A stretch of DNA of 64,000 bases from an uncultured Bacteroidota bacterium (GCA_963703365.1 OY969815.1:1227263-1291262), one strand, 5' to 3'; shown: positions 3,059 to 57,917, counted from the first letter of the stretch. The notes: generated from the sequence alone by a model not told the origin. Numbers and translations are program-made.

Positions 3059-5278
3059 ATGGCTGCCATATTGCATAAGCCGCATATAGTTATATCATAT
3101 AAATCAATATTTGAGATTATAAGTTTACTTATTCTTGTTATTGTCATTGTTGTACCAGTTTCATCTCAGCCAAAGGCTGATGAGCCTCAGGCTCAGAAAG
3201 GACAATCTTTGAAGTATCCGGATACCAATAGAGACAGCGTCGTGAACCATTATTTCGGCACGAAAGTACCGGCCCCGTATCAATGGATGGAGGACCAAAA
3301 CAGTCCGGAGGTTGAATCGTGGGTCGAAGCCGAAAACAAGGTGACGTTCGAATACCTAGATAAGATTCCTATTCGAAAGTGGATCAACGAGAAAATCACA
3401 AAGCTGTGGAATTACGAAAAGGTCGGCGTTCCATCCCAGCATGAAGGGCAGCTCTTCTACAACAAGAACACGGGATTGCAAAACCAAAGCCCGGTTTACA
3501 TGCAGAAGTCGGTGCAGGGAAAACCGAAGATGATCCTCGATCCGAACAAACTTTCACCGGACGGCTCCATTGCCATGCTCGACCATGAAGTTTCACCGGA
3601 CGGCAAATACCTGTGCTATGGCCTTTCACAAGGTGGAGCGGACTGGGAGGAATTACACGTGCTGGATATATCAACCGGCAAGGACCTGGCCGACACCGTG
3701 CACTGGGTAAAGGCCTCCGTCATCGCGTGGACGAACGATAACAAAGGATTTTTCTATTCGCGTTTTCCTGAGCCGAAGAAGGGTGAGGCTCTAACCTCTG
3801 TAGATGCCGGGCATGAACTGTTCTATCACAAACTCGGCACGCCGCAGAGTGAAGACAAGCTTTACTATGATCTGAAAGGCTATCCCGGATGGTACGTCAA
3901 CGGCGGTGTGACGGACGATGGCCGCTACCTTTTCATATTTCTCCAAAGAGGGGATGAATCAAACAAGCTTTTATACGTTGACCTAAAAGACTCAAAGCAC
4001 CCTGACCTTTCGTCCCCCGTTGTTCCACTATTCGAGAAAGACGATGCAGAGTACTATCCCCTCGGGAACGTCGGTACCACAATCTATTTGCAGACTACGC
4101 TCGATGCTCCGAACCGCCGCATAGTGTCTTTCGATATCAACAACCATGACACAACAAACTGGAAGATTGTCGTGCCGGAGTCGAAGAACGTGATTGAAAA
4201 CGCTCTGTTAGCCGGCAGGCACGTCGTTGTCGATTATCTTGTCGACGCGAAAAGCGAAGTGGAAATCTACTCTCTCGACGGCAAACACCAAGGGAATCTG
4301 AAGCTCCCCGGAATTGGCACGGTCGGAGAACTCAATGGCCGATACGATTCGCCGGATTTGTTCTATGCGTTCACATCTTTCTTGTATCCAACGACGGTGT
4401 TCCACTATAGTTTCAAAACAGGAAAGAACACTGCCTTCCATGCGCCGCATGTGGATTTCGACCCGAAGGGATACGAGACGAAGCAGGTTTTCTATAATTC
4501 GAAGGATGGAACGCGGATTCCGATGTTCATCACAATGAAAAAGGGCAAGAAGCCGAACGGAGAGAATCCGACACTTCTTTACGGTTACGGCGGCTTCAGT
4601 ATCAGCATCACACCATCGTACAGTTCCACGACCATCGCGTGGCTGGAAATGGGAGGTATCTACGCTGTGGCAAATCTTCGGGGCGGTGAAGAATACGGTG
4701 AGGCATGGCATCATGCCGGCATGCTCGACAAGAAGCAGAACGTATTTGACGACTTCATTGCCGCGGCGGAGTATTTGATAAAAGAGAAATATACATCGAC
4801 AGCTAAGTTAGGCATAGAGGGATACTCGAATGGCGGTCTTCTCGTTGGCGCGTGCGAGACGCAGCGTCCGGATCTCTACGGTGCCGCGTATGCTGGAGCA
4901 GGTGTTATGGACATGCTGCGTTACCACAAATTCTCGGCCGGAGTAGGATGGGTCCCCGAATACGGCGCACCCAGCGATTCGACAGCCTTTCCGTACCTAA
5001 GCAAGTATTCACCGGTGCAGAACATAAAACCGGGCTTGTGCTATCCGCCTACGATCGTCACGACGGCAGACCACGATGATAGAGTAGTGCCGAGCCATTC
5101 TTACAAGTTCATCGCAGAGATGCAGCACGATCAGTCTTGTGGTAATCCCGTTCTGATTCGAGTTGAGACGAAGACGAGTCACAACTACATGCCGACCGAC
5201 AAACGCATCGCACAGGCAGCGGACGTATTGGCATTCATGGCATATAATCTTGGAATAAACAAGGTACCGACGGATTGA
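3059..5278 (+). CDS. Secreted prolyl oligopeptidase (S9A)
   Basis: GYSNGGL nucleophile, DHDDRV, C-terminal His (SH), LLYGYGGF, NLRGGEEYG; N-terminal hydrophobic signal; start taken from the GAGAGG RBS. Confidence 0.93.
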   Translation: MAAILHKPHIVISYKSIFEIISLLILVIVIVVPVSSQPKADEPQAQKGQSLKYPDTNRDSVVNHYFGTKVPAPYQWMEDQNSPEVESWVEAENKVTFEYLDKIPIRKWINEKITKLWNYEKVGVPSQHEGQLFYNKNTGLQNQSPVYMQKSVQGKPKMILDPNKLSPDGSIAMLDHEVSPDGKYLCYGLSQGGADWEELHVLDISTGKDLADTVHWVKASVIAWTNDNKGFFYSRFPEPKKGEALTSVDAGHELFYHKLGTPQSEDKLYYDLKGYPGWYVNGGVTDDGRYLFIFLQRGDESNKLLYVDLKDSKHPDLSSPVVPLFEKDDAEYYPLGNVGTTIYLQTTLDAPNRRIVSFDINNHDTTNWKIVVPESKNVIENALLAGRHVVVDYLVDAKSEVEIYSLDGKHQGNLKLPGIGTVGELNGRYDSPDLFYAFTSFLYPTTVFHYSFKTGKNTAFHAPHVDFDPKGYETKQVFYNSKDGTRIPMFITMKKGKKPNGENPTLLYGYGGFSISITPSYSSTTIAWLEMGGIYAVANLRGGEEYGEAWHHAGMLDKKQNVFDDFIAAAEYLIKEKYTSTAKLGIEGYSNGGLLVGACETQRPDLYGAAYAGAGVMDMLRYHKFSAGVGWVPEYGAPSDSTAFPYLSKYSPVQNIKPGLCYPPTIVTTADHDDRVVPSHSYKFIAEMQHDQSCGNPVLIRVETKTSHNYMPTDKRIAQAADVLAFMAYNLGINKVPTD
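3166..3195 (+). repeat. 30-bp twin-hairpin element, in frame within the peptidase (QPKADEPQAQ)
   Basis: TCAGCC-AAA-GGCTGA + TGAGCC-TCA-GGCTCA. Confidence 0.85.
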
Positions 5279-5287
5279 TCAACCAAG

Positions 5288-5310
5288 GCGGACATATCGT
5301 CCGTTTTTTT
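5288..5310 (+). terminator. Rho-independent terminator
   Basis: GCGGAC-ATATC-GTCCGT followed by a T run just after the stop codon. Confidence 0.7.
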
Positions 5311-5358
5311 CTGGAGGTGTCCTAATTTGGATTCAGTTCGCAAACTCTAGATATATTC

Positions 5359-5450
5359 TTAACCGTAAGGGTTGCAAAGACGCGCTAGGTATTTTTACCA
5401 ATTTTCTTTTGACCTGAGCCTTTGCGCACATTCGCGCTCTTCGCAGTTTA
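5359..5450. repeat. Degenerate intergenic inverted repeat (AACCGCAAAG…/…CTTTGCG…GTT family)
   Basis: Similar to copies at 30237-30330 and 33561-33657. Confidence 0.55.
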
Positions 5451-21964: not shown

Positions 21965-22428
21965 AACGCATCTTTTCGTTATGGAGTACCTCTGCCTGAG
22001 GCAGTTATTCCCAACTTTACAGGCTAATTTAACCTTAAGATATGACTAATTAAAGCGCAAGGTGAGCAAAATCACAATGCAAGTATCGGAAGTTAATGCG
22101 GAACATAACGACGTGAAAGGCCGAAGAAGATGTCTGCAATGAGGAGAGAAACGGGTATATTGCTTCCCATGGAGATGAGACAAATAGATGGTTCAGAGAA
22201 CGCCTTATCAAGTGTATCACGAAATGTGGGGATATTCATTCGCTATTATAATATGGCAGTCCTGTAGATTAAATCTCCTCAATGCGTTCTTTGTACAGGG
22301 CAAAATCTGGATTTTGGCGAGTAACACATAATAAAGGAGGTGTAACGATGAACTATATTATTAATGGAGTCGTGAAAATGGGTTAACTTTGGTTGGCGCC
22401 TCGAAGATTCGGCAGTGCTTCGGGTTAG

Positions 22429-23506
22429 TTACTTTGGCGGAAATGCAAGAACGATATTCATTTCAGTATCAGTGGCAAACTCAACTTCTTTCGTCCGGAC
22501 TGGAACTAGAAACTTGCTCCCTAATTTCAAGTCGTGTCGGTCCTTTCCACTCGTAATCGTCCCGGCTCCCACTAGTGACGATACCCACATAGAAAGTATT
22601 TGAGCTCCTAATAAATCGACTCGTCACCTTTAGGCGATTCACGGAGAAACACCTAATCTGTCTTTCGTCTATCAGAATACTCTCCACGCCGCCGTCCTGT
22701 TGAGTCAGCGTTCTCGGAGGGCAAAAATAGTCTTGCCTGATCTGCTTCAATTTACGGGGTGAGAAATCAATCATGTCCATCGCAAAATCTATGCTGCGAC
22801 CCATGAATCGCGCTGCCTCAGGTAGGATGTATCCGCCTCTCTCGAACTCTAACCTAACAACGAAGTCGGTGGGTTCCATTATCTCGATCATGAATATGCC
22901 CTCACCAATGGCATGGGGCAGCCCACCGGGGACAATGAAGACATCGCCCGTCCGGACCGGAATTTTCTCGAAGCATGAAAGCAGTTTTGTTGTGTCTTGG
23001 TTCATTACCGCATTCTTGAATTCTTCCCTTGGAATGGGATGTTGGAACCCCAGATAGATGAATGGCTCCTCAATATCCTTGCGGCTTCCAAGAATAATGT
23101 ATGCTTCGGTCTTCCCTGAATTGCTTTGTAGATATTTCCCGGCAAATTCAACGGTCGGATGGGCCTGGATATGTAAGCGAATGACGGAGTCGAGGAGCTT
23201 AACGAGGAATTGGGAATTCGCTCCATACTTCCGAAAGTGTTCAGGTCCTAACAGATCGTCAGGAAAGCGTTCCATGATATCTTTCAGTTTATGTACCACT
23301 CCGTCGATCTCGACCATGGAGAGCCCTTCTTCCTGAATATTTTCCCTACCTGCATTTACAGCAAGCGTCGTCGACGCAATCCAATCTTCAGGAAAATGAC
23401 CGTCTTTCGGATTGATTTTTCCCTCGAGGGTATCGAGAGTCTTCCCTCCGAGATACGTCCGCCAGACCCTGTTCGGCGGCAGCATGATGATATCGGGTAT
23501 TCTCAT
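22429..23506 (-). pseudogene. Class I mannose-6-phosphate-isomerase-like cupin with a +1 frameshift near the C-terminus
   Basis: LVKLLDS-x-IRLHIQAHP, GKTEAY, PGGLPHAIG, EI-x-EPTD; removing one base at 22568-22570 restores SGAGTI…LKLGSKFLVP…FPPK*. Confidence 0.75.
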
Positions 23507-23516
23507 AGAGCCATGG

Positions 23517-25733
23517 TCACTGGATAAAGAAAACCATCACGCCGTTCTTTGGAACGTTCAAGGGTATCGATACAATTTCACCATCTTTTTTGAATGGAAT
23601 GTTTTCATTAGTGAGAATTTCTTTCAGGCTCGCGACTTTCAATTTTCCAACATTAATCTCCAAAGTTCCCGACTTTGGCAGATCGTCTGAGTTGATTAGG
23701 TAGACGACAATCTTGTCTTTGAAAGTGTGTACCTTAAGGCTGACAAATTCATAATCATCTGAAATGAATCTCGCGTCCTGAGTTACGCCGGCATTGGAAG
23801 CCAAATCAAGTATCAGCTTGTTGACAGGGTTGTCCGGCATATCTAAGTAGCTGGCGCCCAGCGAAACGGCACTCAAAACGGCAGTTCCTTTCCCGAAATG
23901 GTTTTCGATGACGGCCGGTGTACTGTCGTCGGCAAAAGTGCCCAGAACTGTGACACTTTCTATCGGTTGCAGTTGATCTCTAAAATACTTTCCGTCAAAC
24001 TGAAAATCTTGTTCGCCGGGCAGATGCATTTTGACTGTGAAGTATGTTTTCCGGCCGATCCAATCTGGCCTCACCGCGCCGAACAGTGAATCCAATCCGG
24101 CACCGGGGCTGGTTTTATATGCAAAGTCAAGCTCATCTATCGTTGCAGTTCGGGCGTCGGCGACGAGGCAGCCACCTTGTCGAACATACTCTTTGAGCAT
24201 GTCCGCAATCTCACGACGCATCACAATCTGGAATGGAAGATAAATGATCTTGTACTGCTTCAGAGTTTCCAGTGTGATTGCTCGATCCATCCTAAGGAAG
24301 TCGACTGAAATATTTCCCTCGAACAGTGCTTTGAACAATCCGGCGTTGCTTTCGTACATGAACTTATTGGTCGCCATTTCTGTGGTTTGCTCGAGCGTCT
24401 TCAAAAGTCCGACCATATCGACGAGGATTGCAACCTGCGCCTTCTTCGGCTGTGCCTGATAGAGATCGCTTCCGTACTGTTCCATGGCGGCGCCCAATTC
24501 CTTCACTGCCTCGCCTCGGGGAGCAAGTTCGCCGTCGACTTGGCATAGTCCTCTTCCAAGCGATTGCCGCCCGCGCATGAACGGAGACCATTTCCAGTAG
24601 ATCATGCCTTTGCAGTCATTTGCCAATGCGGTCCATGCGAGGAGCTTCACGAAATCTTTCGTGAGGTAGCCGTTCAGCGCAAGACCGTTTTGGGAATTCG
24701 TGTAGAGTTCCGTCAGGATATAGCTTTTCGTCCTGGCTGAAGACCGGATCGTGTTAAACGTAAGATTGTGCAGCCAGAAGGGCATCGGCTCCAGATTGTG
24801 GTCGCGTTCCCAGATATCCGGATAGTATGAGATGCCATGGATATCGTTCTCGTCGGCAATGGGAAGGTCATCGATATTATATCCTCCGAACGAGTTGAAG
24901 TTCGCCCAGGGAGTGCTAACCGGATTCGCTGTGATTGGATGAAGAGTATCGTACTTCCTCAATGTTTGCTTCAGTTCTCCGAGTAGTATACCATTCAGAT
25001 CGTTCCTAAATAATATCCAGTCGATCTGGGGCATGGAAGAATCCCAGTTATCATTCAGAAAGGGAGTCACCTCATCCCAGCTTGTGTATTCTTTTCCCCA
25101 TGCTCTTCGGAGTGCCGCGAGAGTTGCGTATTTTTGCTTGAGCCATTCGTGGAATCTCGTAATGACATGGTTTGCATCTGAACTGTAATGAGGTTCATTC
25201 CAGATGTTGTAGAAACTAAGCGCCGGGCTTTTTCCGTATCTCTGGATCACGGCTTTGAAGTATTCTTCGATGAACGGAAAAACTCTCTGGTCGGCGAAGT
25301 CAACGTTTTCGCGGTTGTTCCTGTTGCCATTGTCCAGGTCGTACTCCTCCCACATTCCCGGAATATCCTTGAATTTCCAGATCGGGAAGTAGTGGCTACA
25401 CTGTTCCTCCTTCAGCATTAAAGGAACGAATTTCATCCCCGACTCTTCGATTTTCTTTATCAGGTAATCCGTCCTGGTCCAAAGGAGTTTCTTTGTACCC
25501 GGATTCCATTGGCTCATAGGGAAAATCATGACATCCGTGATATGAGATGCCTTCATCAGAGCAATGTCCCTATCTACTTGCGCGAAGAACTTCGCGTCCG
25601 TTGAAAATTCTTCGTGAAAAATATTGTAGACTGTGCCGACGATTATCGTCTCAGGCGTCTGTGCCAATACCAGCGCTCCAGGGAGCAAGCACATGAATGC
25701 CAAAATGATTTTAAATAAATTTCTCATTCTCAT
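23517..25733 (-). CDS. Secreted GH42-like beta-galactosidase with trimerisation domain
   Basis: Signal peptide; YNIWNEP acid/base, LTEL nucleophile; F-x-x-WL-x-x-KY-x-TL-x-x-L-x-x-AWG; N-x-x-GKG-x-A. Confidence 0.85.
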   Translation of the reverse strand: MRMRNLFKIILAFMCLLPGALVLAQTPETIIVGTVYNIFHEEFSTDAKFFAQVDRDIALMKASHITDVMIFPMSQWNPGTKKLLWTRTDYLIKKIEESGMKFVPLMLKEEQCSHYFPIWKFKDIPGMWEEYDLDNGNRNNRENVDFADQRVFPFIEEYFKAVIQRYGKSPALSFYNIWNEPHYSSDANHVITRFHEWLKQKYATLAALRRAWGKEYTSWDEVTPFLNDNWDSSMPQIDWILFRNDLNGILLGELKQTLRKYDTLHPITANPVSTPWANFNSFGGYNIDDLPIADENDIHGISYYPDIWERDHNLEPMPFWLHNLTFNTIRSSARTKSYILTELYTNSQNGLALNGYLTKDFVKLLAWTALANDCKGMIYWKWSPFMRGRQSLGRGLCQVDGELAPRGEAVKELGAAMEQYGSDLYQAQPKKAQVAILVDMVGLLKTLEQTTEMATNKFMYESNAGLFKALFEGNISVDFLRMDRAITLETLKQYKIIYLPFQIVMRREIADMLKEYVRQGGCLVADARTATIDELDFAYKTSPGAGLDSLFGAVRPDWIGRKTYFTVKMHLPGEQDFQFDGKYFRDQLQPIESVTVLGTFADDSTPAVIENHFGKGTAVLSAVSLGASYLDMPDNPVNKLILDLASNAGVTQDARFISDDYEFVSLKVHTFKDKIVVYLINSDDLPKSGTLEINVGKLKVASLKEILTNENIPFKKDGEIVSIPLNVPKNGVMVFFIQ

Positions 25734-28727: not shown

Positions 28728-28781
28728 TCAGCTAAGGCCGGATGAGCCTTCCACCGAAAAGATGGCGGACGAGTCGGCTCA
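28728..28781 (+). repeat. Degenerate twin-hairpin element interrupted by a second ~24-bp hairpin
   Basis: TCAGCTAAGGCCGGA-TGAGCCT[TCCACCGAAAAGATGGCGGACGAG]TCGGCTCA. Confidence 0.55.
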
Positions 28782-28833
28782 GCCCCCCAACCATCAGAAA
28801 AAACCTCAAGAATCCGGAGCCAAGTGATGAGAG

Positions 28834-28907
28834 TGCGCCTGGAGGGATTCGAACCCCCAACCCTCAGATCCGTAGTCTGATGCTCTATCCAATTGAGCTA
28901 CAGGCGC
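28834..28907 (-). tRNA. tRNA-Arg(ACG), CCA not encoded
   Basis: GCGCCTG acceptor stem, TAGCTCAATTGGATAGAGC D-arm, TCAGA-CTACGGA-TCTGA anticodon arm, GGTTCGAATCC T-arm. Confidence 0.97.
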
Positions 28908-30436: not shown

Positions 30437-33400
30437 GTGAAAATTGCAGAGATAATCATTTTTGTCGCACTAGTTGAGGGATTTCCATCTATATCGCTGT
30501 GCCAGGTTGCCGGTGGTAAGGTCGAGGAACAGCAAGATTATTCGTTTGCCGTCGGCTTATACCGCGACGGCCAGTACGAGTTAGCACTTCAACAATTCAG
30601 GTCGTTACTGAAAAATTATCCAAACTCTCAACGAATCGATGAAATAACTTTTTTGTCAGGCGAATGTCTCATCCAAATGAAGATGTACGACAGCGCGCTG
30701 ATCGACTACCGGAATGTGATGGAAAACTATCCAGGTTCAAGTTACTTCACGCGTTCCGAGCTGCGATCCGGTGAAGTGTCTGTGCAGCTTAACGAGTTCG
30801 ACAAAGCCGAAAAACTCTTAAAAGAAGTTTTGTCCGGAAATACTGACGATGCTTTGAAAGGTGAAGCATCTTATAAGTTAGGACAAATGTTTGTGGACAA
30901 AGAGGACTACACGAACGCAATAAAATATTTTCAACTTTCTTATGAAGGATACAAGAATTCCGGTTTTGCCGATTACGCTCTGTATGGCAAAGCGTGGTGC
31001 ACTGGGAAGCTCAGCGAATACACGGAAGCCAAAGAAGAATTTCAAGAGATGCTTGCCGATTATCCCGATTCAAAGCTGAAGGCAGACGCTACAGAAAAAA
31101 TCGGCGAGTGCGATTTCTTTCAAGGAAATTACCAGAAGGCAATTCAAGAATTTTCAAATTCTACCGCAATTTCTTCGGAAGAGCAAGTTGCTGAACCGGC
31201 ATTGTATTACGAGGGCAGATCTTATGAAGCTGCAGATTTGCCGGACAGCGCCGGCTCGGTTTACACTGAATACATGAACAAGTTTCCTTCGGGCGATCAT
31301 TCCGATGAAGTGAGAGTTTTTCTTTCTAAAATTTTGATTGCAGAGAAAAGTCATGCGCGCGAAGCTCTGGAGCTTCTGAGCAAAGTGGAGCACAAGAATC
31401 CGGTTTACTTTGATGCAAGATTGGAAACTGCTCATGCTTATGAAACTGCCGGGTCCCCCGATTCCGCAGAATTGACTCTCAATGAATTGACCAAGCCCCC
31501 GAATTCTCTAAGAGAAATTTCCAGTGCTTATTATGAATTGGGAAAACTGTATTACAATGAGAAGTCGTATTCCAAAAGTGTGGAATCCTTTTTAAATGCT
31601 TCCCCCGATACTTCATTGTACCCCGAAGCCATGAAAAATGCAGCTATCTCTGCAGCTGCGGGGGGAGATTACAAAAATGCCAAGGTCTATTTCCTTAATG
31701 CTATTATGAAACTTCAAAGAGAGGAGCTGCTGACCGCACATTTTGATTATGCAGCAGCGTTGTATGCGACAAAGGATTACGACGGCGCGGCGCAAATATA
31801 TTTGGCTGCAGAAAAACTTGCGTCTTCTCCGCCTGAGGCGGATGCGCCTTTGGCGCACGATAAAGAACAATCTGAAGCATTATATATGGCGGCAGAATCT
31901 TTCTATGGCGCAAAAAATTATTCGTCATCGTTGACTGATTACAAAAAATATCTTCAAGCTTATCCTAACGGCACTCACTCGGCAACCGCCCTCTTTGGAG
32001 TAGGGTACTCTTACTATTTTTCCAATGAATTCACAAACGCCGCTCATATATTTCAACAATTTGTCGATTCATATCCGAACTCACCGCTGCTTTCAGACGC
32101 TTATCTCAGACTTGGTGATGCTTACTTCTACAACAAAGATTACGAAAAAGCACTCGGTGTTTATCAAGAGGCGGCGACAAAATTTCAGGCTGATACGTCG
32201 ACGGCGTACGCCGTCTATCAAGTCGGCGAATCTAATTTTTGGTTAGGACGATTAGATGCCGCGACGGCTGCATTTAGATCGCTGCTGAAAAATTATCCTG
32301 AATCGTCAATTGTGTCTGATGCTCAATTTGCGATCGGCTGGGTTTATTTTTCCCAGAAGCAATATCCGCAAGCAATTTCAGAGTTTAAAAATACTGTTTT
32401 GAATTACCCGAACAGTGCTGCCGCTGCGAGAGCGCTTTACAGCCAAGGCGATGCATATTACAATCTTCAAAATTATGATGATGCACTTGCGAGTTATCAG
32501 AGGCTCCTCGCAAAATATCCGACAAGCGATTATGTCGATAACGCGATAGTCGGGATGCAATATTGTCTGACAGTTTTGGGAAGAACGAAAGAAGCTGAGA
32601 CCGTGACGGATGATTTCGTTCGCGCTCATCCGCAGCTCGCGCACATCGACAGGATCTATTATAAAAAAGCGGAATATGGTTTGAACCAAAAACACTACAC
32701 CGAAGCCGAACGCGACTTGAGAGAGTTCATTGTTAAATTTCCGAAAAGTGAAATATTAGGAAAGGCTCTTTATAACCTTGCACTTGTAGAAATAAATTTA
32801 GGAAGAGAAAAGGCTGCTATAGGTATACTATCTGACTTAATTGACAAGCAGCCGTGGGATGAATATACTGACGCCGGAAGGATTAAGCTTGCTGAGATTT
32901 ATCAAGGACAAAAAGAATACACGGTAGCTCAGAAACTTCTTGAGAATGCTGCGGCGTCAGGTGATGTGTATGGCACGAAAGCGCAAACCGATCTTGGAAA
33001 ACTTTATCTTGCGGAAGGTGATACTCTGAAAGCGGAATCAACTCTTTCAAAGGCAGCCCTCACACAGTCTGATTCTTCTGCGCTGGAGGTGCATCAACCT
33101 CCGGCTGAAAATAATGAAGACCGGGATGAAGCAAAAATTTTGTTAAGCAGCATATATTTCAATCGCGGACGAAGTGAGGACGCAATTTCTTTGGCGAATT
33201 CGGTGGCGAAGACGCGTGATGATACTGTCGGGGCTGATGCACAGCTCAAAGTTGCCGAATATTATTGCGACTACGGCGACACCTCCAACGCAGTGCTTTC
33301 TTTTCTACGCGTGAAATATGTGTATGCAAGCTTCACGGACATAGTCGCAGAGTCGCAGCTTGAGCTTGCCGATTGCCTGGCAAAGTCAGGAAACAAGCGC

Positions 33401-33499
33401 GAAGCGCGAGCTCTTCTTCGTGATTTTATCAAAGGGAGGGCGGACGATTCGTTTACGAAATTGGCAAGAGAGAAATTGGAAGAATTTGGTGCGGATTAA
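30437..33499 (+). CDS. Large periplasmic TPR protein (BamD/CpoB-like repeats)
   Basis: Many A-x-Y-x-x-G…A-x-x-x-F-x-x-x-x-x-x-YP-x-S repeats; signal peptide. Confidence 0.9.
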   Translation: MKIAEIIIFVALVEGFPSISLCQVAGGKVEEQQDYSFAVGLYRDGQYELALQQFRSLLKNYPNSQRIDEITFLSGECLIQMKMYDSALIDYRNVMENYPGSSYFTRSELRSGEVSVQLNEFDKAEKLLKEVLSGNTDDALKGEASYKLGQMFVDKEDYTNAIKYFQLSYEGYKNSGFADYALYGKAWCTGKLSEYTEAKEEFQEMLADYPDSKLKADATEKIGECDFFQGNYQKAIQEFSNSTAISSEEQVAEPALYYEGRSYEAADLPDSAGSVYTEYMNKFPSGDHSDEVRVFLSKILIAEKSHAREALELLSKVEHKNPVYFDARLETAHAYETAGSPDSAELTLNELTKPPNSLREISSAYYELGKLYYNEKSYSKSVESFLNASPDTSLYPEAMKNAAISAAAGGDYKNAKVYFLNAIMKLQREELLTAHFDYAAALYATKDYDGAAQIYLAAEKLASSPPEADAPLAHDKEQSEALYMAAESFYGAKNYSSSLTDYKKYLQAYPNGTHSATALFGVGYSYYFSNEFTNAAHIFQQFVDSYPNSPLLSDAYLRLGDAYFYNKDYEKALGVYQEAATKFQADTSTAYAVYQVGESNFWLGRLDAATAAFRSLLKNYPESSIVSDAQFAIGWVYFSQKQYPQAISEFKNTVLNYPNSAAAARALYSQGDAYYNLQNYDDALASYQRLLAKYPTSDYVDNAIVGMQYCLTVLGRTKEAETVTDDFVRAHPQLAHIDRIYYKKAEYGLNQKHYTEAERDLREFIVKFPKSEILGKALYNLALVEINLGREKAAIGILSDLIDKQPWDEYTDAGRIKLAEIYQGQKEYTVAQKLLENAAASGDVYGTKAQTDLGKLYLAEGDTLKAESTLSKAALTQSDSSALEVHQPPAENNEDRDEAKILLSSIYFNRGRSEDAISLANSVAKTRDDTVGADAQLKVAEYYCDYGDTSNAVLSFLRVKYVYASFTDIVAESQLELADCLAKSGNKREARALLRDFIKGRADDSFTKLAREKLEEFGAD
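31828..31857 (+). repeat. 30-bp twin-hairpin element, in frame in the TPR gene (PPEADAPLAH)
   Basis: TCCGCC-TGA-GGCGGA + TGCGCC-TTT-GGCGCA. Confidence 0.88.
33079..33108 (-). repeat. 30-bp twin-hairpin element, reverse orientation, in frame in the TPR gene (ALEVHQPPAE)
   Basis: Reverse complement reads TCAGCC-GGA-GGTTGA + TGCACC-TCC-AGCGCA. Confidence 0.75.
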
Positions 33500-36431: not shown

Positions 36432-37326
36432 TGAGCGTGGAAGCGTTGCCGGGTCATACTATTATCGGCAGTATGAAATAAGAAGAATTTATTCTCGAAA
36501 TTTTTATCGAGGCTTATTCATCGCATTGGCAGTCCATGCGGCTTTTATATTTCTTCTTTTTTTATACGAGCCAATCTACAAACAGCCGCCGGACATCGAA
36601 AAACTTCTTCCACCTCTGAATACCAATTATGAACTGATCGAAGTGAGAATTGCGGGACAGAATGCAGCAGGTATGGATGTTAAAGGTTCAGGTGGAGGAG
36701 AAGGTACAATCAAGGAAAACGCGGGAGCAGCATTCGGAAATGTAAATCTTGCTCCCGTATCAAATGAAAATACGATAAATCCTAATGCCTCGATTGTTCC
36801 TCACTCGCTCCAAGGACCGGGGATGAATGATATTGTCGGGACCAACCGCAATCCTGACTACTTTGACACCGTTAGTGGGTATAATGGTACGGCACAAAAC
36901 GGGGAAGGGTCCGGCGGGGGAAAGGGCAATGGAATTGGCAACAAAAGCGGCAATGGTGCAGGCTTTACGGATAAGCCGGGATTCGGTGGAGGATTTGGAG
37001 ATAAGTACGTGCCCGGCAACCCTGCGAACAATTCTGCAACTGGTACCCCGTATCAGATTTCGTGGAATGGAGTATCGAGAGCTTTAGTTGCCGGCGACAG
37101 ACCACAATTCCCGGACGGTGTTCAGCATGGGGGTACGGTAAAAATAAGGATAACGGTTGACCCGTCGGGAAATGTGCTTGCGATGGTACCTATTCAAAAA
37201 GCCGATTCGCGTCTCGAAGAAGCAGCAATGGCTGCAATTCGTACATGGAGGTTTAGCAAACTTGCCAGAAATTATTCTCAGATCGAACAGCAAGCTACAG
37301 CGACATTTGTTTTTAAACTTGAGTAA
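36397..37326 (+). CDS. TonB-family energy transducer-like protein
   Basis: TM helix with His, Gly-rich linker, G-x-V-x-I-x-ITVD-x-x-G-x-V…A-x-x-AIRTWRF; start uncertain. Confidence 0.8.
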   Translation: MEQMSGLYQRNDERGSVAGSYYYRQYEIRRIYSRNFYRGLFIALAVHAAFIFLLFLYEPIYKQPPDIEKLLPPLNTNYELIEVRIAGQNAAGMDVKGSGGGEGTIKENAGAAFGNVNLAPVSNENTINPNASIVPHSLQGPGMNDIVGTNRNPDYFDTVSGYNGTAQNGEGSGGGKGNGIGNKSGNGAGFTDKPGFGGGFGDKYVPGNPANNSATGTPYQISWNGVSRALVAGDRPQFPDGVQHGGTVKIRITVDPSGNVLAMVPIQKADSRLEEAAMAAIRTWRFSKLARNYSQIEQQATATFVFKLE

Positions 37327-37367
37327 GAAGAGACTATCTGAAAAGATTAAATTCAGATAAAAATTCC

Positions 37368-38099
37368 TTGAACATCCGACCGAGGTTAGAAGTCGTAACA
37401 TCAAAATTACGAAACTCATTTCGGGTCCCGCATCGTAAACGCAAGCTGCCGGATCCGCTTGAACTTCTCATAGCGACCATATTGTCACAGAATACAAACG
37501 ACGTGAACAGCCACAGAGCTTTCACAAATCTAAAGAATGCTTATCCAAACTTTTTATCTCTCTCAAATGTCCAGCCGCGAAGAATAGAGTCGTTAATAAG
37601 AATCGGCGGAATCGCGAATAAGAAAAGCAAAACCATAGTTCACATTGTCAAAGAGATAAAATCAAATTTCGAGAAATTCGATCGAAGAAATTTACGGCGT
37701 TTTTTAAGGGAAAATCTCATTGAGAAACTCTGTAACATGAATGGCGTCGGATACAAAACTGCTGCATGCGTATCTCTATTTGCCCTTGGCGACGACGATG
37801 CTTTTCCGGTTGATACGCACGTGCATCGGATTCTCAACAGACTCGGCATAGTTGAAGAGAAAACCCCGGACAAAACTTATTTACGAGTTAAAGATTCGAT
37901 ACCAGAACATCGCGGCTATGAGCTTCATATAAACCTGATAAAGTTCGGAAGAAAAACCTGCACAGCGCATAAGCCCAAATGCTACGAATGTCTTTTATTT
38001 GATCTGTGCAATTGGAAGGAAAAGGCGCTTCAAATGCCGGACAAAGCCGCAAAGATCGATAAGGAAAAAGTCGAATTTATGCTCCTTGAAAAAGTTTGA
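37368..38099 (+). CDS. nth: Endonuclease III-like HhH-GPD glycosylase
   Basis: LIATILSQNT, GVG-x-KTA, FPVDTHV-x-R, C-x6-C-x2-C-x5-C. Confidence 0.88.
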   Translation: MNIRPRLEVVTSKLRNSFRVPHRKRKLPDPLELLIATILSQNTNDVNSHRAFTNLKNAYPNFLSLSNVQPRRIESLIRIGGIANKKSKTIVHIVKEIKSNFEKFDRRNLRRFLRENLIEKLCNMNGVGYKTAACVSLFALGDDDAFPVDTHVHRILNRLGIVEEKTPDKTYLRVKDSIPEHRGYELHINLIKFGRKTCTAHKPKCYECLLFDLCNWKEKALQMPDKAAKIDKEKVEFMLLEKV

Positions 38100-38179
38100 A
38101 ATCTCACGTTGTCCTCATTTTTCAAAGGGATATTCATAGGGATTCAGTTATTGCATTTTAATTGACTTTTGATTAAGTA

Positions 38180-39166
38180 ATGATGATGGAACCAAGAGAA
38201 CAACCGCGGGCACCAATGATAAGCGGAATAAATGTCATCGGAGAAAATGTAGATGTCGATTATTCCGCAAATCTGGTAAACATAGTCCTATTTTTTGATT
38301 CCGTTTCGAGAATTTCTCTTGAAAGTTTGGACACGGTTCAACTTTTTGCGCAGCGCTATGAGAAATTGTCGGTAGGATTCTGGTACGTGATGGAGCCGAG
38401 ACTCTCCTGCATGTATCGAGGAAATATTGCGCGAGCCGCATTGGAAAGATTGGGCTTGTTTGCAAACGCAGTCTTTGATGCTAATAGCATGATTGTCTTG
38501 CGGGCAGGGATTAAAGTGGTTCCGGCGGTGATGGTAATAGATTCAAACTCATTCATCAGATCACAGTACGAAGGAGAAATAAGTTTTCGTGAGATAGAGC
38601 GTGCCATTCAAGCGCGCCTTGCTCTATCAGGATACAGGGATGATCTGCCGACAGTTGGAGGGATGGAATTCCATATTTCTCGTTTGCGTGGTGGATCGGT
38701 AATGCGGCAATTGGGTTACGCGACGGGCGATTATTTATTCACGAGCTTGGTTGTCCCCGAATCCGATCAGCAATTCTCGCTCCCCGACTTTTGTTTGCCC
38801 GACGCAATCTATCCGTGCGGTCCGTGGTTTGTTGGAAGAGATTTCATTGAAGGCAAAACTGGAAGCACAGTCTATATCAGTTGCTCGAAAGACGAATCGG
38901 TTCATATCTTTGCCGGGTCTGAAGAGAACGCCGCCGTGAAAATTCACACCTCTATCGAATCGGATCAGCATATCATTCTCGGAAAAGATGTGGCAAGAAA
39001 CGGCAATGCTATCGAAATAGCTATTGATGACTTCCGTTCGTATGAAGTGCTTGCAGCTTCCGGAGACGCGGATGTCCTGATTAGTTTACAAGTGTGCTCC
39101 GGGTCGGTGAAATTATATTGTGTAGAGTATTGCCAACACAATCCAGTCGTTCATATCAATATTTGA
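38180..39166 (+). CDS. DipZ-like thioredoxin-fold protein lacking CxxC
   Basis: Aligns by eye to the DipZ redoxin and C-terminal beta domains; FFDSVSRIS replaces FW-x-x-x-C-x-x-C. Confidence 0.65.
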   Translation: MMMEPREQPRAPMISGINVIGENVDVDYSANLVNIVLFFDSVSRISLESLDTVQLFAQRYEKLSVGFWYVMEPRLSCMYRGNIARAALERLGLFANAVFDANSMIVLRAGIKVVPAVMVIDSNSFIRSQYEGEISFREIERAIQARLALSGYRDDLPTVGGMEFHISRLRGGSVMRQLGYATGDYLFTSLVVPESDQQFSLPDFCLPDAIYPCGPWFVGRDFIEGKTGSTVYISCSKDESVHIFAGSEENAAVKIHTSIESDQHIILGKDVARNGNAIEIAIDDFRSYEVLAASGDADVLISLQVCSGSVKLYCVEYCQHNPVVHINI

Positions 39167-39306
39167 TAGTCCACAAATTTTCGAAAGTTTTTCCAGTCCA
39201 ATAATCCGTTATTCGAATGACGAAACTTTCCGAAGGTTACATGTCATTGCCCTTTCCGCGGCCAAACGTTAGATTATAACCATTCTTTCACAAAAAATCT
39301 AAAGCT

Positions 39307-40287
39307 ATGGAAACTAGACTTATTGAATCAATTAAATCAAAAGCAAAAACATTGAATCGCCACATCGTATTGCCCGATGCGATGGACGAACGTGCCATAA
39401 TTGCAGCACGCAAAATTACGGATCAGTCAATAGCCAGAATTTCTCTCATCGGCAAAGAAAAGGACGTTCGCAAAAAATCGGAAGAAGCTGGTGCTAACCT
39501 TAACGGAATTGCCGTCGTTGATCCCGAAAATCACGATAATGCGGAACGATATGCAAAGACTTTCTATGAAATGAGGAAATCGAAAGGCATTACTCCCGAA
39601 CAAGCAGTTGAGACCATGAAGCACCCTCTCTTTTTCGGGGCCATGATGCTTAAAGATGGGATTGCCGATGGAAGCGTTGCAGGTTCTCTTTCAACAACTG
39701 GTGATGTGCTGCGTGCGGGAATTCAAGTGATTGGGATGCAAGATGGAATTTCGATTGTATCAAGTTTTTTCTTAATTATTTTTCCACATAAGGTTTATAC
39801 GTTTGCCGATTGCGGTGTTGTTCCGTATCCTACCGTGGAACAGCTTGCCGACATTGCAATCACTACAGCGGAAAATCACCGCAAAGTAGTCGGTGAGGAG
39901 CCGCGGGTCGCAATGCTTTCATTCTCGACCAAGGGAAGTGCCAAGCACGAGATGGTTGATAAGGTGGTACAAGCGACCGAAGTAGCAAAGAAGAAAGCGC
40001 CGCATTTGAAGATCGACGGCGAGCTTCAACTTGATGCTGCAATCGTTCCTGATGTCGCGAAGAGAAAGGCGCCGGCAAGTGCCGTTGCCGGTGAAGCGAA
40101 CGTTCTGATTTTTCCGAACCTCGATGCGGGCAATATCGGTTATAAGATGGCACAGCGTATGGGCGGCGCAGACGCGCTCGGACCACTTGTGCAAGGATTG
40201 AAAAAACCCGCATTTGACCTTTCACGCGGATGCAGCGTCCAGGATATTGTTGACGTTGTTGCGGTCAATTGTGTAATGGGAGTGTAA
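39307..40287 (+). CDS. pta: Phosphate acetyltransferase
   Basis: FADCGV, PRVAMLSFSTKGSA, DGELQLDAA, FPNLDAGNIGYK, DLSRGCS. Confidence 0.95.
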   Translation: METRLIESIKSKAKTLNRHIVLPDAMDERAIIAARKITDQSIARISLIGKEKDVRKKSEEAGANLNGIAVVDPENHDNAERYAKTFYEMRKSKGITPEQAVETMKHPLFFGAMMLKDGIADGSVAGSLSTTGDVLRAGIQVIGMQDGISIVSSFFLIIFPHKVYTFADCGVVPYPTVEQLADIAITTAENHRKVVGEEPRVAMLSFSTKGSAKHEMVDKVVQATEVAKKKAPHLKIDGELQLDAAIVPDVAKRKAPASAVAGEANVLIFPNLDAGNIGYKMAQRMGGADALGPLVQGLKKPAFDLSRGCSVQDIVDVVAVNCVMGV

Positions 40288-40415
40288 GAGGAACCATGGG
40301 TGATCGTCCCTCCGAAGATAGCGGTCGCCTTATCGCCTGCTTTTTTTCTCGCTATGCGTGTGCTAATTTCTTATTTAGATAAGGCAAATCAAACCGGATC
40401 AAAATTTTTGATTAG

Positions 40416-41240
40416 ATGACAAAAGAAATATCTATCTGTAAAATAAAAATCGGTAACGGCAATCCGCTCGTTATAATTGCCGGTCCATGCGTTGTCGAAA
40501 GCCGGGAGCTTGCCTTGAAAGTTGCACGGGATGCGAAAAAGATAACCGGAAACCTTGGCTTGCCGTATATTTACAAGTCGAGTTATAAGAAAGCGAATCG
40601 CACCAGTGGGAAATCTTTTGTCGGAATTGGAATGGATCAAGCTTTGAAAATTCTCGAGGAAGTAAAAAGAGAATTTGATCTGCCGATCCTGACGGATGTT
40701 CATTCCGAAGCTGAAGTTGAAGCAGCATCGGAAGTCGCCGACGTCCTCCAAATTCCGGCGTTCCTTTGCAGACAGACTGATCTTTTACAAACTGCCGGCA
40801 AAACAGGGAAAGCTGTAAACATAAAGAAGGGCCAATTCATGGCGCCGGAAGATATGCAGCTTCAAGCGGAAAAAATTGTTATAGTAGGAAATTCCAGAGT
40901 GATGTTGACAGAACGGGGCACAAGCTTCGGTTATCATAATCTTATTGTGGATATGAGGTCGCTGGTGATAATGCGGGAGAGCGGTTTCCCTGTCATACTT
41001 GACATAACTCATTCTCTCCAGTTGCCGGGTGGTGAGAAAGATAAGACAGGAGGCCAGCCGGAATATATTTTCCCGATTGCGCGCGCAGGTGTTGCTGTTG
41101 GTGTCGACGGAATTTTTCTCGAAACTCATCCCGAGCCGGCTAAAGCGCTGAGCGACGTTTCAACTCAATTACCATTTGATAAGTTTGCACTTCTTCTTGA
41201 GCAGGTGAAGAAGATTGATTTGCTGAGACGCGAACTGTGA
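40416..41240 (+). CDS. kdsA: KDO-8-phosphate synthase
   Basis: IAGPCVVES, KANRTS, QIPAFLCRQTDL, KKGQF, ERGTSFGY. Confidence 0.97.
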   Translation: MTKEISICKIKIGNGNPLVIIAGPCVVESRELALKVARDAKKITGNLGLPYIYKSSYKKANRTSGKSFVGIGMDQALKILEEVKREFDLPILTDVHSEAEVEAASEVADVLQIPAFLCRQTDLLQTAGKTGKAVNIKKGQFMAPEDMQLQAEKIVIVGNSRVMLTERGTSFGYHNLIVDMRSLVIMRESGFPVILDITHSLQLPGGEKDKTGGQPEYIFPIARAGVAVGVDGIFLETHPEPAKALSDVSTQLPFDKFALLLEQVKKIDLLRREL

Positions 41241-56700: not shown

Positions 56701-57081
56701 ATGGCATGTTTGATAAACGAGTATTCCGCATCGGACGGTGATGTTTTCCCTTATTATTTCCGCAAATATAATCTCGGCCCGCTGATTGGTAAGAGAACTT
56801 GGGGCGGTGTGAGAGGGATTCGCGGATACACATCGCTAGTCGATGGCGGCTATGTCACGATGCCTGAATTCTCTACGTATGGCCTAAAGAGCGAGTGGAT
56901 AATGGAGAACCACGGCGTCAATCCTGACATTGAAGTCGATCAAACTCCGAAGCTTGTCATGGAGGGAAGCGATCCGCAAATGGAAACGGCAATCAAATAT
57001 TTGTTGGATGAAATTAAGAAAGCTCCGAAGCAACTTCCGCCATTGCCGCCTTACATGCCGGCGTATCCACCGGAAAAGTGA
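53773..57081 (+). CDS. Tricorn protease (S41) homolog
   Basis: PD40 propeller repeats, GEL-x-x-SH, PDZ, D-x-RYNGGG, SASDGD, RTWGGV, ENHGV-x-PD. Confidence 0.95.
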   Translation: MEMLMKKIVVLLAPLPFLFLNAFAANEARLLRFPTIYNDKVAFVYAGDIYEVSSQGGTARRLTSDPGLELFPRFSPDGKWIAFTGQYDGNFNVYVMPSEGGQPKQLTFRQDAEQVPERFGPNDEVISWTPDGNNILFLSRNEAFTSWFGKLFTVSLNGGMPVEFPVPKGGLLSFSPDGNKFAYNRIFRDFRTWKRYYGGLAQDIYIHDMKTMDEEKITDWKGTDKNPMWYKNTIYFLSDRDTDHRMNIWAYDVNSRQTIQVTTFTDYDCNWASLGLDAIVFENGGYLYVLNLADEKVHRLEISIPNDETLGMSNWVDASKNINSFDISPDGERAVFEARGDIFTLPKENGNTRDITNTSDADEKNPSWSPDGKYVEYISDKTGEEEIYLREDKPNSDEIQITHDNKAYLYQPLWSPDSKKLLYSDASLNLWYVDITNKEKVLIDRDSVQEFTDYSWSPDSRFVTYAKHHKTGFTSINIYSLQDKKIHEVTNGFTNDYDPIFDSAGKYLIFLSDRKFNGVIGSFDMEFTDTKTTGIYIATLQADSASPFAPKNDEVKVTSPKPEKASADTQTQAAKTKKPSDIHIDFENLGGRAVEVPIPANNVAGLREASSKIFYMTQPTSGLSGNASGEKPALHCYDLGERKDTEMLSPIDGYDLSSNGEKIIYKSDKTYGIIDAKPDEHKVGDGGLSLSNMKKFVNFHDEWTEMFDQVWRLERQFFYSPEMNGVDWKAIKKKYEVLLPYVNNRYDLTYIIGEMIGELGNSHTYVGGGYYPEKEKIETGLLGADYVLDQSSGYYRIDKILVGLNTDPNRRSPLTMPGMNVHEGDYILSINNSPAKFPVSIDSLLENTVRSTVTLLVNSKPDAKGAWTVEVNPIASELTLRYNDMIVHNRELVDSISGGKIGYVYLPDMDADGLNAFVEQFYPQVRKDGLIIDERYNGGGFVDQLILERLRRILVGMEMSRNGEPGTTPAPVFDGYMACLINEYSASDGDVFPYYFRKYNLGPLIGKRTWGGVRGIRGYTSLVDGGYVTMPEFSTYGLKSEWIMENHGVNPDIEVDQTPKLVMEGSDPQMETAIKYLLDEIKKAPKQLPPLPPYMPAYPPEK

Positions 57082-57160
57082 TTTGCAGGTAAGTAATAGA
57101 CACAAGAGGGACATGAGCACAAAGTCATGTCATGCCTCTTTGTGTCCCTTGTGCCTCGTA

Positions 57161-57190
57161 TGAGCCGTAGGCTCACCAGCCTCGGGCTGA
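57161..57190 (-). repeat. 30-bp twin-hairpin element, intergenic, reverse orientation
   Basis: TGAGCC-GTA-GGCTCA + CCAGCC-TCG-GGCTGA. Confidence 0.85.
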
Positions 57191-57203
57191 GAAGATCGAA
57201 TCA

Positions 57204-57917
57204 ATGAAAAAACTTCGTAACGATTTCAAAAAACTCTTTGTCAATTGGGGAAAGTATTACGCTCTTCCGGCTCATTGGAAGAAAACACAATGGCTTTTGT
57301 TTGTTGGCTTTCTTTTTACAGTAGTTGTATCGTCATGTTTCGATGAGCCGATTCGATATTTATTCCTTTCGATTCACAGTCCGGCGGCGGATGCGGTATT
57401 CAAGTTCGCGCATTGGTTCGGTACAGGCTATCCGACGCTATATATATTCCTCGGTCTTTATGTCGGCGGCTTAGCGTTTAGTTCTGAAAAGACCCGGCTT
57501 GGAGGGCTGATGTTATTACAGTCGTATCTGTATTCGGGTGCAATCACTAATTCTCTGAAATCAATTATTGGAAGGTGGAGACCGTCGGCAGGACATGGGC
57601 ACTTAACTTTCACGCCGATGACAACCACTCCAAACGCCCATCTTTCGTTCCCATCGGGCGATGTGGCAGTCGTATTCTCCCTCGCGATCGTCATGGCTGG
57701 ACTGTGCCAGCCGAAGGCTGATGCGCCTTTGGCGCAGAAGACTATTATATGGATCTGGAAAGCTCTGTGGATTATTCTCGCCGTGCTGACGTCGCTATCG
57801 AGAATTTATTACGATGCGCATTGGTTTTCGGATGTTGTATTCTCAACGGTGAACGCGGTTGTGGCAGGGTTGTGGGTTGTGAAGAAATATAAAAGTGAAA
57901 CTGGAATAGTGGGGTAA
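57204..57917 (+). CDS. PAP2-family phosphatase
   Basis: K-x6-RP, SFPSG(D), SRIY-x-x-x-HW-x-SD. Confidence 0.85.
   Translation: MKKLRNDFKKLFVNWGKYYALPAHWKKTQWLLFVGFLFTVVVSSCFDEPIRYLFLSIHSPAADAVFKFAHWFGTGYPTLYIFLGLYVGGLAFSSEKTRLGGLMLLQSYLYSGAITNSLKSIIGRWRPSAGHGHLTFTPMTTTPNAHLSFPSGDVAVVFSLAIVMAGLCQPKADAPLAQKTIIWIWKALWIILAVLTSLSRIYYDAHWFSDVVFSTVNAVVAGLWVVKKYKSETGIVG
57707..57736 (+). repeat. 30-bp twin-hairpin element, in frame in the PAP2 gene (QPKADAPLAQ)
   Basis: CCAGCC-GAA-GGCTGA + TGCGCC-TTT-GGCGCA. Confidence 0.88.

Follow-up and report, generated by a model that had tools for sequence, protein, structure and literature searches.

Several kinds of short hairpin-forming repeats have been described with which the subject of this study can be compared, i.e., a twin hairpin of 30 bp that occurs repeatedly in a 64,000-nucleotide stretch of DNA from an uncultured Bacteroidota bacterium (G000:C1:1227263-1291262; this whole stretch is called the window, and window positions are counted from its first letter). 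The REP sequences and REPINs of Proteobacteria are likewise short, GC-rich hairpin repeats present in tens to hundreds of copies, as described in PMC3116915, PMC3337134 and bioRxiv 10.1101/2021.07.10.451892. The twin hairpin differs from them in several respects. It consists of two abutting 15-bp hairpins, whereas a REPIN is composed of two inverted REPs and a spacer. REPs are extragenic, whereas approximately 48% of the twin hairpins (42 of 88) are located in genes, in frame, and the target is palindromic, TTC^GAA (^ marks the insertion point). Furthermore, no RAYT or other Y1 gene is found in the genome concerned, and the gene flanked by the repeat encodes a GIY-YIG protein. Features common to REPs, REPINs and the twin hairpin are conserved stems with variable loops, mostly vertical inheritance in the long term, and a single nuclease-type gene flanked by the repeat.

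The palindromic elements of Rickettsia are found in frame in the genes of unrelated proteins, where their translation adds extra peptides; the account in PMC10969869 mentions an element of ~150 bp with 44 insertions in R. conorii, nearly half of them in open reading frames (ORFs). However, at ~100-150 bp, these elements are five times longer than the twin hairpin, and size alone excludes membership. Moreover, the lineage that hosts the twin hairpin is free-living and of the Bacteroidota/Kryptoniota kind, the target is defined, the empty sites are exact, and a candidate nuclease accompanies the element. Miniature inverted-repeat transposable elements, as characterized in the same source, have terminal inverted repeats, generate a target-site duplication and typically measure 50-500 bp (PMC10969869), whereas the twin hairpin measures 30 bp and shows no duplication at exact empty sites. 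The mitochondrial double-hairpin elements, GC clusters and repetitive hairpin-forming elements, as presented in PMC4478555 and PMC2800124, are very short and mobile, contain one or two hairpins, and are intergenic and occasionally genic. They are, however, organellar, have another sequence and lack a known link to a GIY-YIG or tRNA cassette. The double-hairpin elements were reportedly first described from Allomyces.

Palindrome-associated elements derived from IS200/IS605 resemble the twin hairpin in that they do not duplicate their target, end in hairpins and insert beside a short specific sequence. In contrast to these elements, the twin hairpin has no TnpA in its genome and shows no lagging-strand bias (see below). 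Its hairpins reach the very ends of the element, which leaves no room for guide or cleavage sequences. The TTC at its 5' side would suit an IS200/IS605-like insertion 3' of a short specific sequence, but an equally strong GAAGA is present at its 3' side. Free-standing GIY-YIG homing cassettes and Slx1 nucleases are comparable to the gene neighboring the twin hairpin, which encodes a minimal GIY-YIG domain, often in tandem and directly behind tRNA genes; we know of no homing endonuclease or Slx1 relative that spreads a separate 30-bp hairpin module. A literature search, not covering subscription-only papers and supplementary files, yielded no description of a 30-bp twin hairpin, of Kryptonia repeats or of a link between GIY-YIG proteins and REP-like repeats; GIY-YIG and RAYT were found together in no paper, and GIY-YIG and REPIN only in an unrelated one on restriction enzymes.

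The twin hairpin is a family of 30-bp non-autonomous mobile elements that insert as an exact block, in either orientation and without duplication of the target. The source genome, G000, is a single contig of 3,151,091 bp with 45% G+C and is 97.4% complete. When sites with up to four mismatches to the strict consensus TCMGCC-N3-GGCKGA-TGMGCC-N3-GGCKCA are counted, it contains 88 copies, i.e., 28, 25, 16, 13, and 6 with 0, 1, 2, 3, and 4 mismatches, respectively. A preceding description of the window, further called the initial annotation, had used the pattern YCMGCC-N3-GGCKGR-TGMGCC-N3-GGCKCA, which has 31 exact matches in G000. The motif is present far above chance: none of 100 dinucleotide-preserving shuffles of the window contained a match, and the reversed pattern, used as a control, gave no hits in any of the 41 and 401 genomes searched. 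The proposal in the initial annotation that this is a very short, non-autonomous mobile element adding 10-residue peptides in frame to proteins is borne out by clean 30-bp empty sites in orthologues.

These empty sites were identified by comparison with a congener, G001, of which the first 2.8 Mb of contig 1 was compared with G000 in all ORF contexts. For 14 of the 42 genic copies of G000, an exact 10-codon empty site is found in G001, and for one further copy, located in a PAP2 gene in the window (57707), the gap is of 12 codons. Ten sites are occupied in G001 in the same orientation, mostly by decayed copies, two are ambiguous, and 15 have no spanning alignment. Conversely, among the 42 sites with up to four mismatches in G001, seven are clean insertions specific for that genome with an empty site in G000. 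At 1713692, the flanks are the same with and without the element (GTGGAG^GAAGAAGAT) and excision restores the G001 sequence exactly; thus, the boundaries of the element are its bases 1 and 30. Excision likewise restores the sequence of the relative exactly at 2692218 (TCG AAG). No target-site duplication is found at any exact empty site in the alignments of orthologues, including those of G001, in agreement with the initial annotation.

The window copies (Table 1) are of different ages. The first copy in the gene for a TPR protein (31828) corresponds to an exact 10-codon (30-bp) gap in all five orthologues found, which are 83-59% identical, and after removal of the 30 bp, G000 reads TCT TCC GAT where the nearest relative has TAT TCC GAT. 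This insert is bridged identically by public metagenome contigs of two runs (contigs of four runs were compared with window positions 22000-41000). The second site in the same gene (33079) is occupied by a decayed copy in the two closest relatives as well (L031 and L035), and three more distant orthologues have a 10-codon gap; hence, older copies decay. The site at 3166 is also occupied in G001, by a decayed copy, which indicates an older insertion. At the PAP2 site, 25 other orthologues in the genus are available; an extra segment, again decayed, is present only in the closest relative, G021, and in the remaining 24 the protein has a 12-codon gap, seen in six of them as 36 bp when the DNA is aligned. 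None of the 25 orthologous loci in the genus has the intergenic copy at 57161, even when up to five mismatches are allowed.

Six copies had been listed for the window in the initial annotation. Four of them, at 3166(+), 31828(+), 57161(-), and 57707(+), match its pattern exactly and fold, as single strands, into two abutting hairpins with stems of 5-6 bp and loops of 3 nt (z -2.2 to -3.3). The fifth, at 33079(-), stands as a decayed copy, with three mismatches and a fold that is no longer that of a twin hairpin. The sixth, at 28728, folds no better than its shuffles (z +0.37) and is therefore only a possible relic; it is kept as such, since tRNA-proximal fragments are a recurrent home of twin hairpins. 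In an Rfam search of the window, a tRNA was the sole match. The claim that structure rather than peptide is conserved is correct for the family, but not for individual loci, where old genic copies decay.

Across the genome, the element has the architecture TCMGCC-NNA-GGCKGA (hairpin A) followed by TGMGCC-TNN-GGCKCA (hairpin B). The stems TCAGCC, TGCGCC, TCCGCC, and TGAGCC rank top in a census of all perfect hairpins with 6-bp stems and 3-nt loops in G000. Each stem has one variable position, which switches only between A:T and C:G. Over the 88 copies, pair 3:13 is A:T in 45, C:G in 24, a G.T wobble in 12 and something else in 7, and pair 18:28 is C:G in 49, A:T in 32 and something else in 7. 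The compensatory stem changes reported in the initial annotation are confirmed by the exact single hairpins, in which the arms are matched rather than mixed in 58 vs. 1 cases for hairpin A and in 52 vs. 0 for hairpin B (palindromic matches halved). The variants of the two stems assort independently, and A+A and B+B combinations are also present in G000. The loops are free but for their fixed bases (NNA and TNN); all 88 copies are different 30-mers, and 24 loop pairs are present among the 28 perfect copies.

A single 15-bp hairpin as the mobile unit was considered and ruled out, since 68 unit clusters consist of pairs at exactly 15-bp spacing and well-paired solo hairpins number only a handful; the 30-bp twin is thus the unit. 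A larger composite element was rejected as well, as the flanks of the 88 copies are unique but for two small groups embedded in larger repeats. Pairing between the loops, as in a long 30-nt hairpin or in kissing loops, is not supported either: loop positions 7-24 and 8-23 are complementary about as often as by chance (24, 26 and 9 observed vs. 26, 24 and 8.6 in shuffles). Finally, the idea of a tRNA intron was abandoned because in silico removal of 85 twin sites from G000 and 38 from G001 reconstituted no tRNA gene; the copies in T-loops sit in tRNA fragments. Two larger repeat families with a common flank of 100-150 bp hold arrays of three or four hairpin units of the same kind; they are possibly composite forms of the element or older ones.

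The flanks have the consensus a-T-T-Y^R-A-a-G-a, with no difference between 34 genic and 34 intergenic copies, and the same bases are already there in the empty sites. Therefore, it represents a target preference, i.e., the loosely palindromic TCTTC^GAAGA with TTC^GAA as its core (written out as a duplex, TCTTCGAAGA; sites of this type, TTCGAAGA). In several empty sites, only one of the two sides fits this consensus. Judged from GC skew, replication starts near 3.02 Mb and terminates near 1.34 Mb, and with 34 copies in leading and 37 in lagging orientation, there is no bias with respect to replication. Within genes, 19 copies are co-oriented with the gene and 23 opposed to it. When genes are called crudely (2244 genes, 83% coding), 42 copies are placed within genes, 44 in intergenic DNA and two at gene edges. 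Genes are under-represented as a location but are far from avoided, with ~48% of the copies in an 83% coding genome. The intergenic copy at 57161 takes up most of the 122-bp spacer (window 57081-57204) between a gene for a 1102-amino acid peptidase-like protein and the PAP2 gene, and ends 13 bp before the ATG of the latter; several other intergenic copies are located 12-17 bp upstream of start codons, some with a GAGGAG-like sequence following, and such copies may influence how translation starts.

As 30 bp correspond to ten codons, genic insertions remain in frame. The four peptides that the initial annotation had read from the genic copies in the window, all with codons starting at base 2 of the element, are as it gave them. 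This codon start is not, however, a property of the element: genome-wide, 28 genic copies start at base 2, 9 at base 1 and 5 at base 3, and four of the latter five are found at ORF positions 0-6, probably upstream of the true start. The sequence TTYRAAGA occurs in the genes of G000 in a ratio of 379:38:224 over the three phases, and 22% of the element variants are free of stop codons in the base-1 phase, vs. 79% and 96% in the other two. Target phase multiplied by this stop filter gives an expectation of 60:28:12%, with which the observed 28:9:5 agrees (chi-square p 0.61), whereas a uniform target is rejected. Thus, the bias toward base 2 results from the codon phase of the target and the loss of stop-bearing insertions. 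In silico removal of 46 non-genic copies revealed none that splits a long ORF. Since stop-bearing insertions are missing from genes, genic copies are probably translated, rather than being spliced out or bypassed.

The peptides usually encoded are S/F-QP(K/E)AD(A/E)PxAQ-K or S-APEAHQPLAE (an example of this type is SQPKADAPLAQK), and the host proteins include, besides a peptidase, TPR and PAP2 proteins, a probable leucyl-tRNA synthetase and transporters. In the prolyl oligopeptidase, the insert at 3166 comprises residues 61-70, after an N-terminal hydrophobic segment; the propeller domain begins at residue 79. In the PAP2 protein, the insert at 57707 comprises residues 168-177, within the PAP2 domain, in the loop between the motifs PSGD and SRIYYDAHW.

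Nineteen of the 24 other genomes in the genus contain the motif with at most one mismatch, at 1-30 hits each vs. 53 in G000, and the 12 sister-family genomes have none. Among 401 genomes sampled evenly across the phylum, 22 have an exact match, i.e., G000, one genus-mate, 19 genomes that belong to the class but to other families, and G064, a member of another class, which has seven copies. Among the viral contigs scanned, one stretch has an exact match, and thus there is no sign of a phage vector. This distribution indicates an old family that is mostly present in low copy number and has expanded in G000.

The initial annotation had compared the element to REPs mobilized by RAYTs and had suggested looking for a nuclease gene flanked by the motif. 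The analogy fails as far as the enzyme is concerned. No match to Y1_Tnp (PF01797) was found in G000 at E <= 0.001, whilst the same search was positive in 6 of 14 control genomes. A nuclease gene flanked by the motif does exist, just outside the window, and encodes a small GIY-YIG protein. The order at this locus is tRNA-Ser(gga), tRNA-Ser(cga), GIY-YIG gene 1, a tRNA 3' fragment with a twin hairpin, GIY-YIG gene 2, and a second such fragment with a twin hairpin. Behind each GIY-YIG gene, the last ~28 nt of the tRNA are repeated, and in both of these copies a twin hairpin splits the T-loop, GGTTC^GAATC. The locus has the appearance of tRNA-targeting GIY-YIG cassettes arranged in tandem. The protein encoded by gene 2 matches the Pfam GIY-YIG profile PF01541 with 56.3 bits (cut-off 22.6, E 3.9e-15), and the solved structures nearest to it are 1zg2 and 1ywl (UPF0213). 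Both are counted among the Slx1 family's bacterial representatives in PMC1564403, where relatives of Slx1 are described to cut branched DNA.

Small GIY-YIG genes are present, often in tandem, in all 26 genomes of the genus. Thirty GIY-YIG loci were compared, and the best locus per genome was used for tests of copy number. Of the 29 scanned with ARAGORN, 24 contain a tRNA gene, which mostly ends right before the GIY-YIG gene. The best-scoring homologues, i.e., those in G000 (two), G011, G024 (two), G002, G001 (two), and G013, are followed at a distance of 25-90 bp downstream by a twin hairpin of the TSMGCC type, and these hairpins split GGTTC^GA(A/G)TCC of a tRNA 3' fragment. In G022, a single hairpin is found downstream of the GIY-YIG gene, and in G021 a twin hairpin in a tRNA 5' fragment. 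The lower-scoring paralogues (L185-L202 and L206) are without TSMGCC hairpins, with L192 as a partial exception, where one TCCGCC hairpin stands alone far upstream; at several of the paralogue loci, other hairpin inserts occupy the same spot in the T-loop. In a maximum-likelihood tree of 35 GIY-YIG sequences, seven of the nine members of one clade (support 93/89) carry TSMGCC hairpins, and another group carries a twin hairpin of the form TCCC-N3-GGGA + CTCC-N3-GGAG. The latter is dispersed as well, with 11 hits in G017 (C1:19622, C1:19962 and nine more) and 10 in G018 (controls 0), and for two of the hits in G017 it is located directly behind GIY-YIG genes. As its length of 22 bp is not a multiple of three, it would be expected to be barred from genes.

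In other families, for which adjacency was derived from coordinates alone, G405 has two tandem GIY-YIG genes with a hairpin 3 bp downstream and a third gene at 58 bp, and the distance between hairpin and GIY-YIG gene is 19 bp in G147, as it is in G064 of the other class. Within the genus, copy number is higher in the seven genomes with the linked clade than in the 17 others (one-sided Mann-Whitney p 0.0012, uncorrected for relatedness), and it correlates with the best GIY-YIG bit score (Spearman rho 0.53, equally uncorrected). In loci L177-L206, tandem GIY-YIG arrays of up to ~14 copies with a period of ~300 bp are seen, e.g., in G016:C8:597112-598794 and G111:C2:365009-369130, and the tRNA-linked GIY-YIG cassettes look like a widespread, apparently undescribed family in the class. 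Some loci contain, downstream of the GIY-YIG gene, tRNA-like modules with a normal D-arm and T-arm and an "anticodon" stem of ~12 bp (ATCCCGATTCAA...TTGAATCGGGAG). Tandem arrays of GGTTC-[twin hairpin]-GAGTC, spaced 75-117 bp and with no GIY-YIG gene in between, were also encountered and suggest repeated modules of a tRNA fragment plus hairpin.

How might such an element spread? The stems and the A:T/C:G switch may be kept because a factor reads both the sequence and the hairpin structure. Such dual reading is indicated by the tolerance for G.T wobbles, the complete absence of G:C and T:A at the variable position and the near absence of mixed arms; half-sites bound independently on duplex DNA presumably would not give this stem pattern. 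Active lineages would then keep their stems for mobility whilst their loops drift, and fixed copies would decay. If loops are free, long-lived active lineages are expected to differ in them, a divergence that can be likened to that between REPIN populations. Insertions bearing stop codons would be lost, and the survivors would be translated as 10-residue loops. The trans-acting enzyme could be the small Slx1-like GIY-YIG nuclease, whose tRNA-linked cassette holds the cognate twin hairpin within TTC^GAA of the T-loop; judged from the genomic context, this identification is a serious candidate, falling somewhat short of an even chance. The nuclease would cut in a structure-specific manner where extruded hairpins have their base, as well as at sites resembling TTC^GAA, and blunt rejoining or repair via short homologies would follow. 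Cutting and rejoining by a GIY-YIG nuclease would explain the exact gain of 30 bp, the lack of a duplication, the indifference to orientation, and the target. A broader version, in which each tRNA-linked GIY-YIG clade bluntly excises and inserts its cognate twin hairpin at TTC^GAA-like sites and the 30-bp family writes 10-residue loops into proteins across the class, is speculative and rather unlikely to hold in full. Overall, the combination of a mobile 30-bp family, translated genic inserts and a candidate GIY-YIG enzyme is considered the probable explanation.

Several observations are difficult to reconcile with this explanation. At some sites occupied in both genomes, the G000 copy is perfect and that of G001 has decayed, which does not fit simple insertion followed by decay and suggests refreshment or re-insertion in G000. 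As all 88 copies are distinct, with 24 loop pairs among the 28 perfect ones, no donor can be named for recent insertions. No metagenome contig without the 31828 insert was seen among those of the four runs, which are of low depth. As to the enzyme, five genomes of the genus have GIY-YIG genes and no copy with at most one mismatch, and G000, with the most copies, has just two GIY-YIG genes, one of which contains an in-frame TAG. Furthermore, GIY-YIG nucleases are not, to our knowledge, capable of strand transfer, and 46 tRNA genes with intact T-loops must escape cutting. The GIY-YIG protein is a candidate mobilizer, its role being put at slightly less than even.

The rival that survives best retains mobility and regards the link with the GIY-YIG genes as incidental: the element prefers TTC^GAA, tRNA 3' fragments are harmless carriers, and another enzyme is responsible for mobilization. 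This is a realistic possibility, albeit not the favored one. The target consensus equals the core of the T-loop, and adjacency could stem solely from the targets offered by tRNA fragments beside the cassettes. Twin hairpins are indeed found in tRNA fragments away from GIY-YIG genes, e.g., at 1021748, downstream of tRNA-Lys, and in a D-loop fragment in L181. GIY-YIG genes are also present in genomes without copies, and conversely, G023 (15 copies), G017 (10), and G010 (9) have their best GIY-YIG match outside the linked clade. However, the type of hairpin follows the GIY-YIG clade, other clades have other hairpin inserts at the identical position in the T-loop, the second pair of clade and hairpin is likewise dispersed, and adjacency extends across families and to one other class. 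All these findings are what a hairpin belonging to the cassette would lead one to expect, and they would be difficult to obtain by chance insertion.

Alternatively, the element could spread without a dedicated enzyme, by hairpin-stalled replication or break repair with template switching via microhomologies of 3-5 bp (TCTTC/GAAGA). The conserved flanks come from the target and do not differ between the two sides, insertion is precise, no target duplication is generated, and no transposase family was found, all of which would suit such a process. It is nevertheless improbable: there is no donor with the same loops for recent inserts, the 88 copies all being distinct, the consensus is matched on just one side in several empty sites, and the same 24 stem positions are kept across the families of the class, which points to a factor that reads sequence.

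A REP/REPIN or IS200/IS605-type system, in which a Y1 HUH transposase (RAYT or TnpA) acts on single-stranded hairpins, is highly improbable; although short hairpin repeats without target duplication, the TTC conserved immediately 5' of the element and the G.T wobbles tolerated in stem A (12 of 88) would be in line with it, the PF01797 search was negative in G000, there is no bias with respect to replication direction, half of the copies are intragenic, and the flank consensus is on both sides. That the motif is not mobile at all, but belongs to the host as a structured regulatory site or favored linker peptide of recurrent or ancient origin, or is an assembly artifact, can practically be dismissed: its consensus is conserved across the class and some shared copies are perfect in G000, but lineage-specific 30-bp insertions with empty sites exist in G000 relative to G001 and vice versa, copies are found in either orientation, in three reading frames and in intergenic regions, and they are seen in independent assemblies and in contigs derived from short reads.

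The mobile twin hairpin thus represents a natural process that writes a fixed 10-residue loop into many unrelated proteins, with exact insertion and traceable losses, and it constitutes a natural experiment on the tolerance of proteins for insertions and on their gain of loops. With it, REP-like biology also covers an uncultured lineage and coding DNA and may involve a new class of enzymes. If the link with the GIY-YIG protein is true, it would provide a role for the widespread, uncharacterized UPF0213/Slx1-like proteins of bacteria and a reason for their position behind tRNA genes. On the practical side, 30-bp insertions can mislead orthology assignment, indel-based phylogeny and gene calling in metagenome-assembled genomes.

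Table 1. Coordinates of twin hairpins, their host genes and related features; plain numbers are window positions unless a contig is given or genome positions are indicated.
Feature	Position	Strand	Remarks
Twin hairpin	3166..3195	+	0 mismatches; in prolyl oligopeptidase gene; encodes QPKADEPQAQ
Twin hairpin	31828..31857	+	0 mismatches; in TPR gene; encodes PPEADAPLAH; recent, G000-specific
Decayed twin hairpin	33079..33108	-	3 mismatches; same TPR gene as 31828; encodes ALEVHQPPAE
Twin hairpin, intergenic	57161..57190	-	0 mismatches to pattern of initial annotation, 1 to strict consensus
Twin hairpin	57707..57736	+	0 mismatches to pattern of initial annotation, 1 to strict consensus; in PAP2 gene; encodes QPKADAPLAQ
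Possible relic copy	28728..28791	.	arms TGAGCC/GGCTCA of hairpin B 27 nt apart, poor hairpin A; downstream of tRNA gene
tRNA-Arg gene adjoining possible relic	28834..28907	-	Rfam 71 bits; ARAGORN tRNA-Arg(acg), genome 1256095-1256169
Prolyl oligopeptidase gene	2984..5278	+	host gene; Peptidase_S9_N + Peptidase_S9
TPR protein gene	30437..33499	+	host gene; 1020 amino acids; two copies
PAP2-family membrane protein gene	57204..57917	+	host gene
tRNA-linked GIY-YIG locus	G000:C1:1292084-1292964		0.8-1.7 kb past right end of window
GIY-YIG gene 1	1292324-1292557 (genome)		in-frame TAG
GIY-YIG gene 2	1292657-1292911 (genome)		intact, 84 amino acids
tRNA-like modules	L186, L189, L190, L196, L206		in G018, G006, G017, G014, G013; ARAGORN: one is tRNA-Ser
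GGTTC-[twin hairpin]-GAGTC arrays	G023:C41:7427-7612; G008:C141:4326-4464; G021:C57:24548-24691; G001:C1:2975986-2976138		
Larger repeat family with hairpin arrays, first	G000:C1:326252, 2750404, 2899929		
Larger repeat family with hairpin arrays, second	G000:C1:1561191, 2077802, 2080294, 2082285		
AACCTT/AAGGTT pairs, examples	G000:C1: 26931/26949, 30310/30329, 719237/719255, 865485/865503		

Two further kinds of hairpin repeats were noticed in G000. Short GC-rich hairpins, CCCCGCGAGCGGGG or CCCGCGAACGGG, adjoin several twin-hairpin copies (flanks of G000:C1:2359760, 2686350, and 2080294) and may be a further small family, including a member within a gene (peptide GTPAPRAGS). The other repeat consists of AACCTT-N3-AAGGTT, a spacer of 3-6 nt and again AACCTT-N3-AAGGTT, with complementary loops, so that a longer palindrome results. 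Contig C1 contains 25 exact hairpins of this type, many in adjacent pairs (~18 loci) and 23 of them intergenic, and the repeat looks like a second REP-like family.

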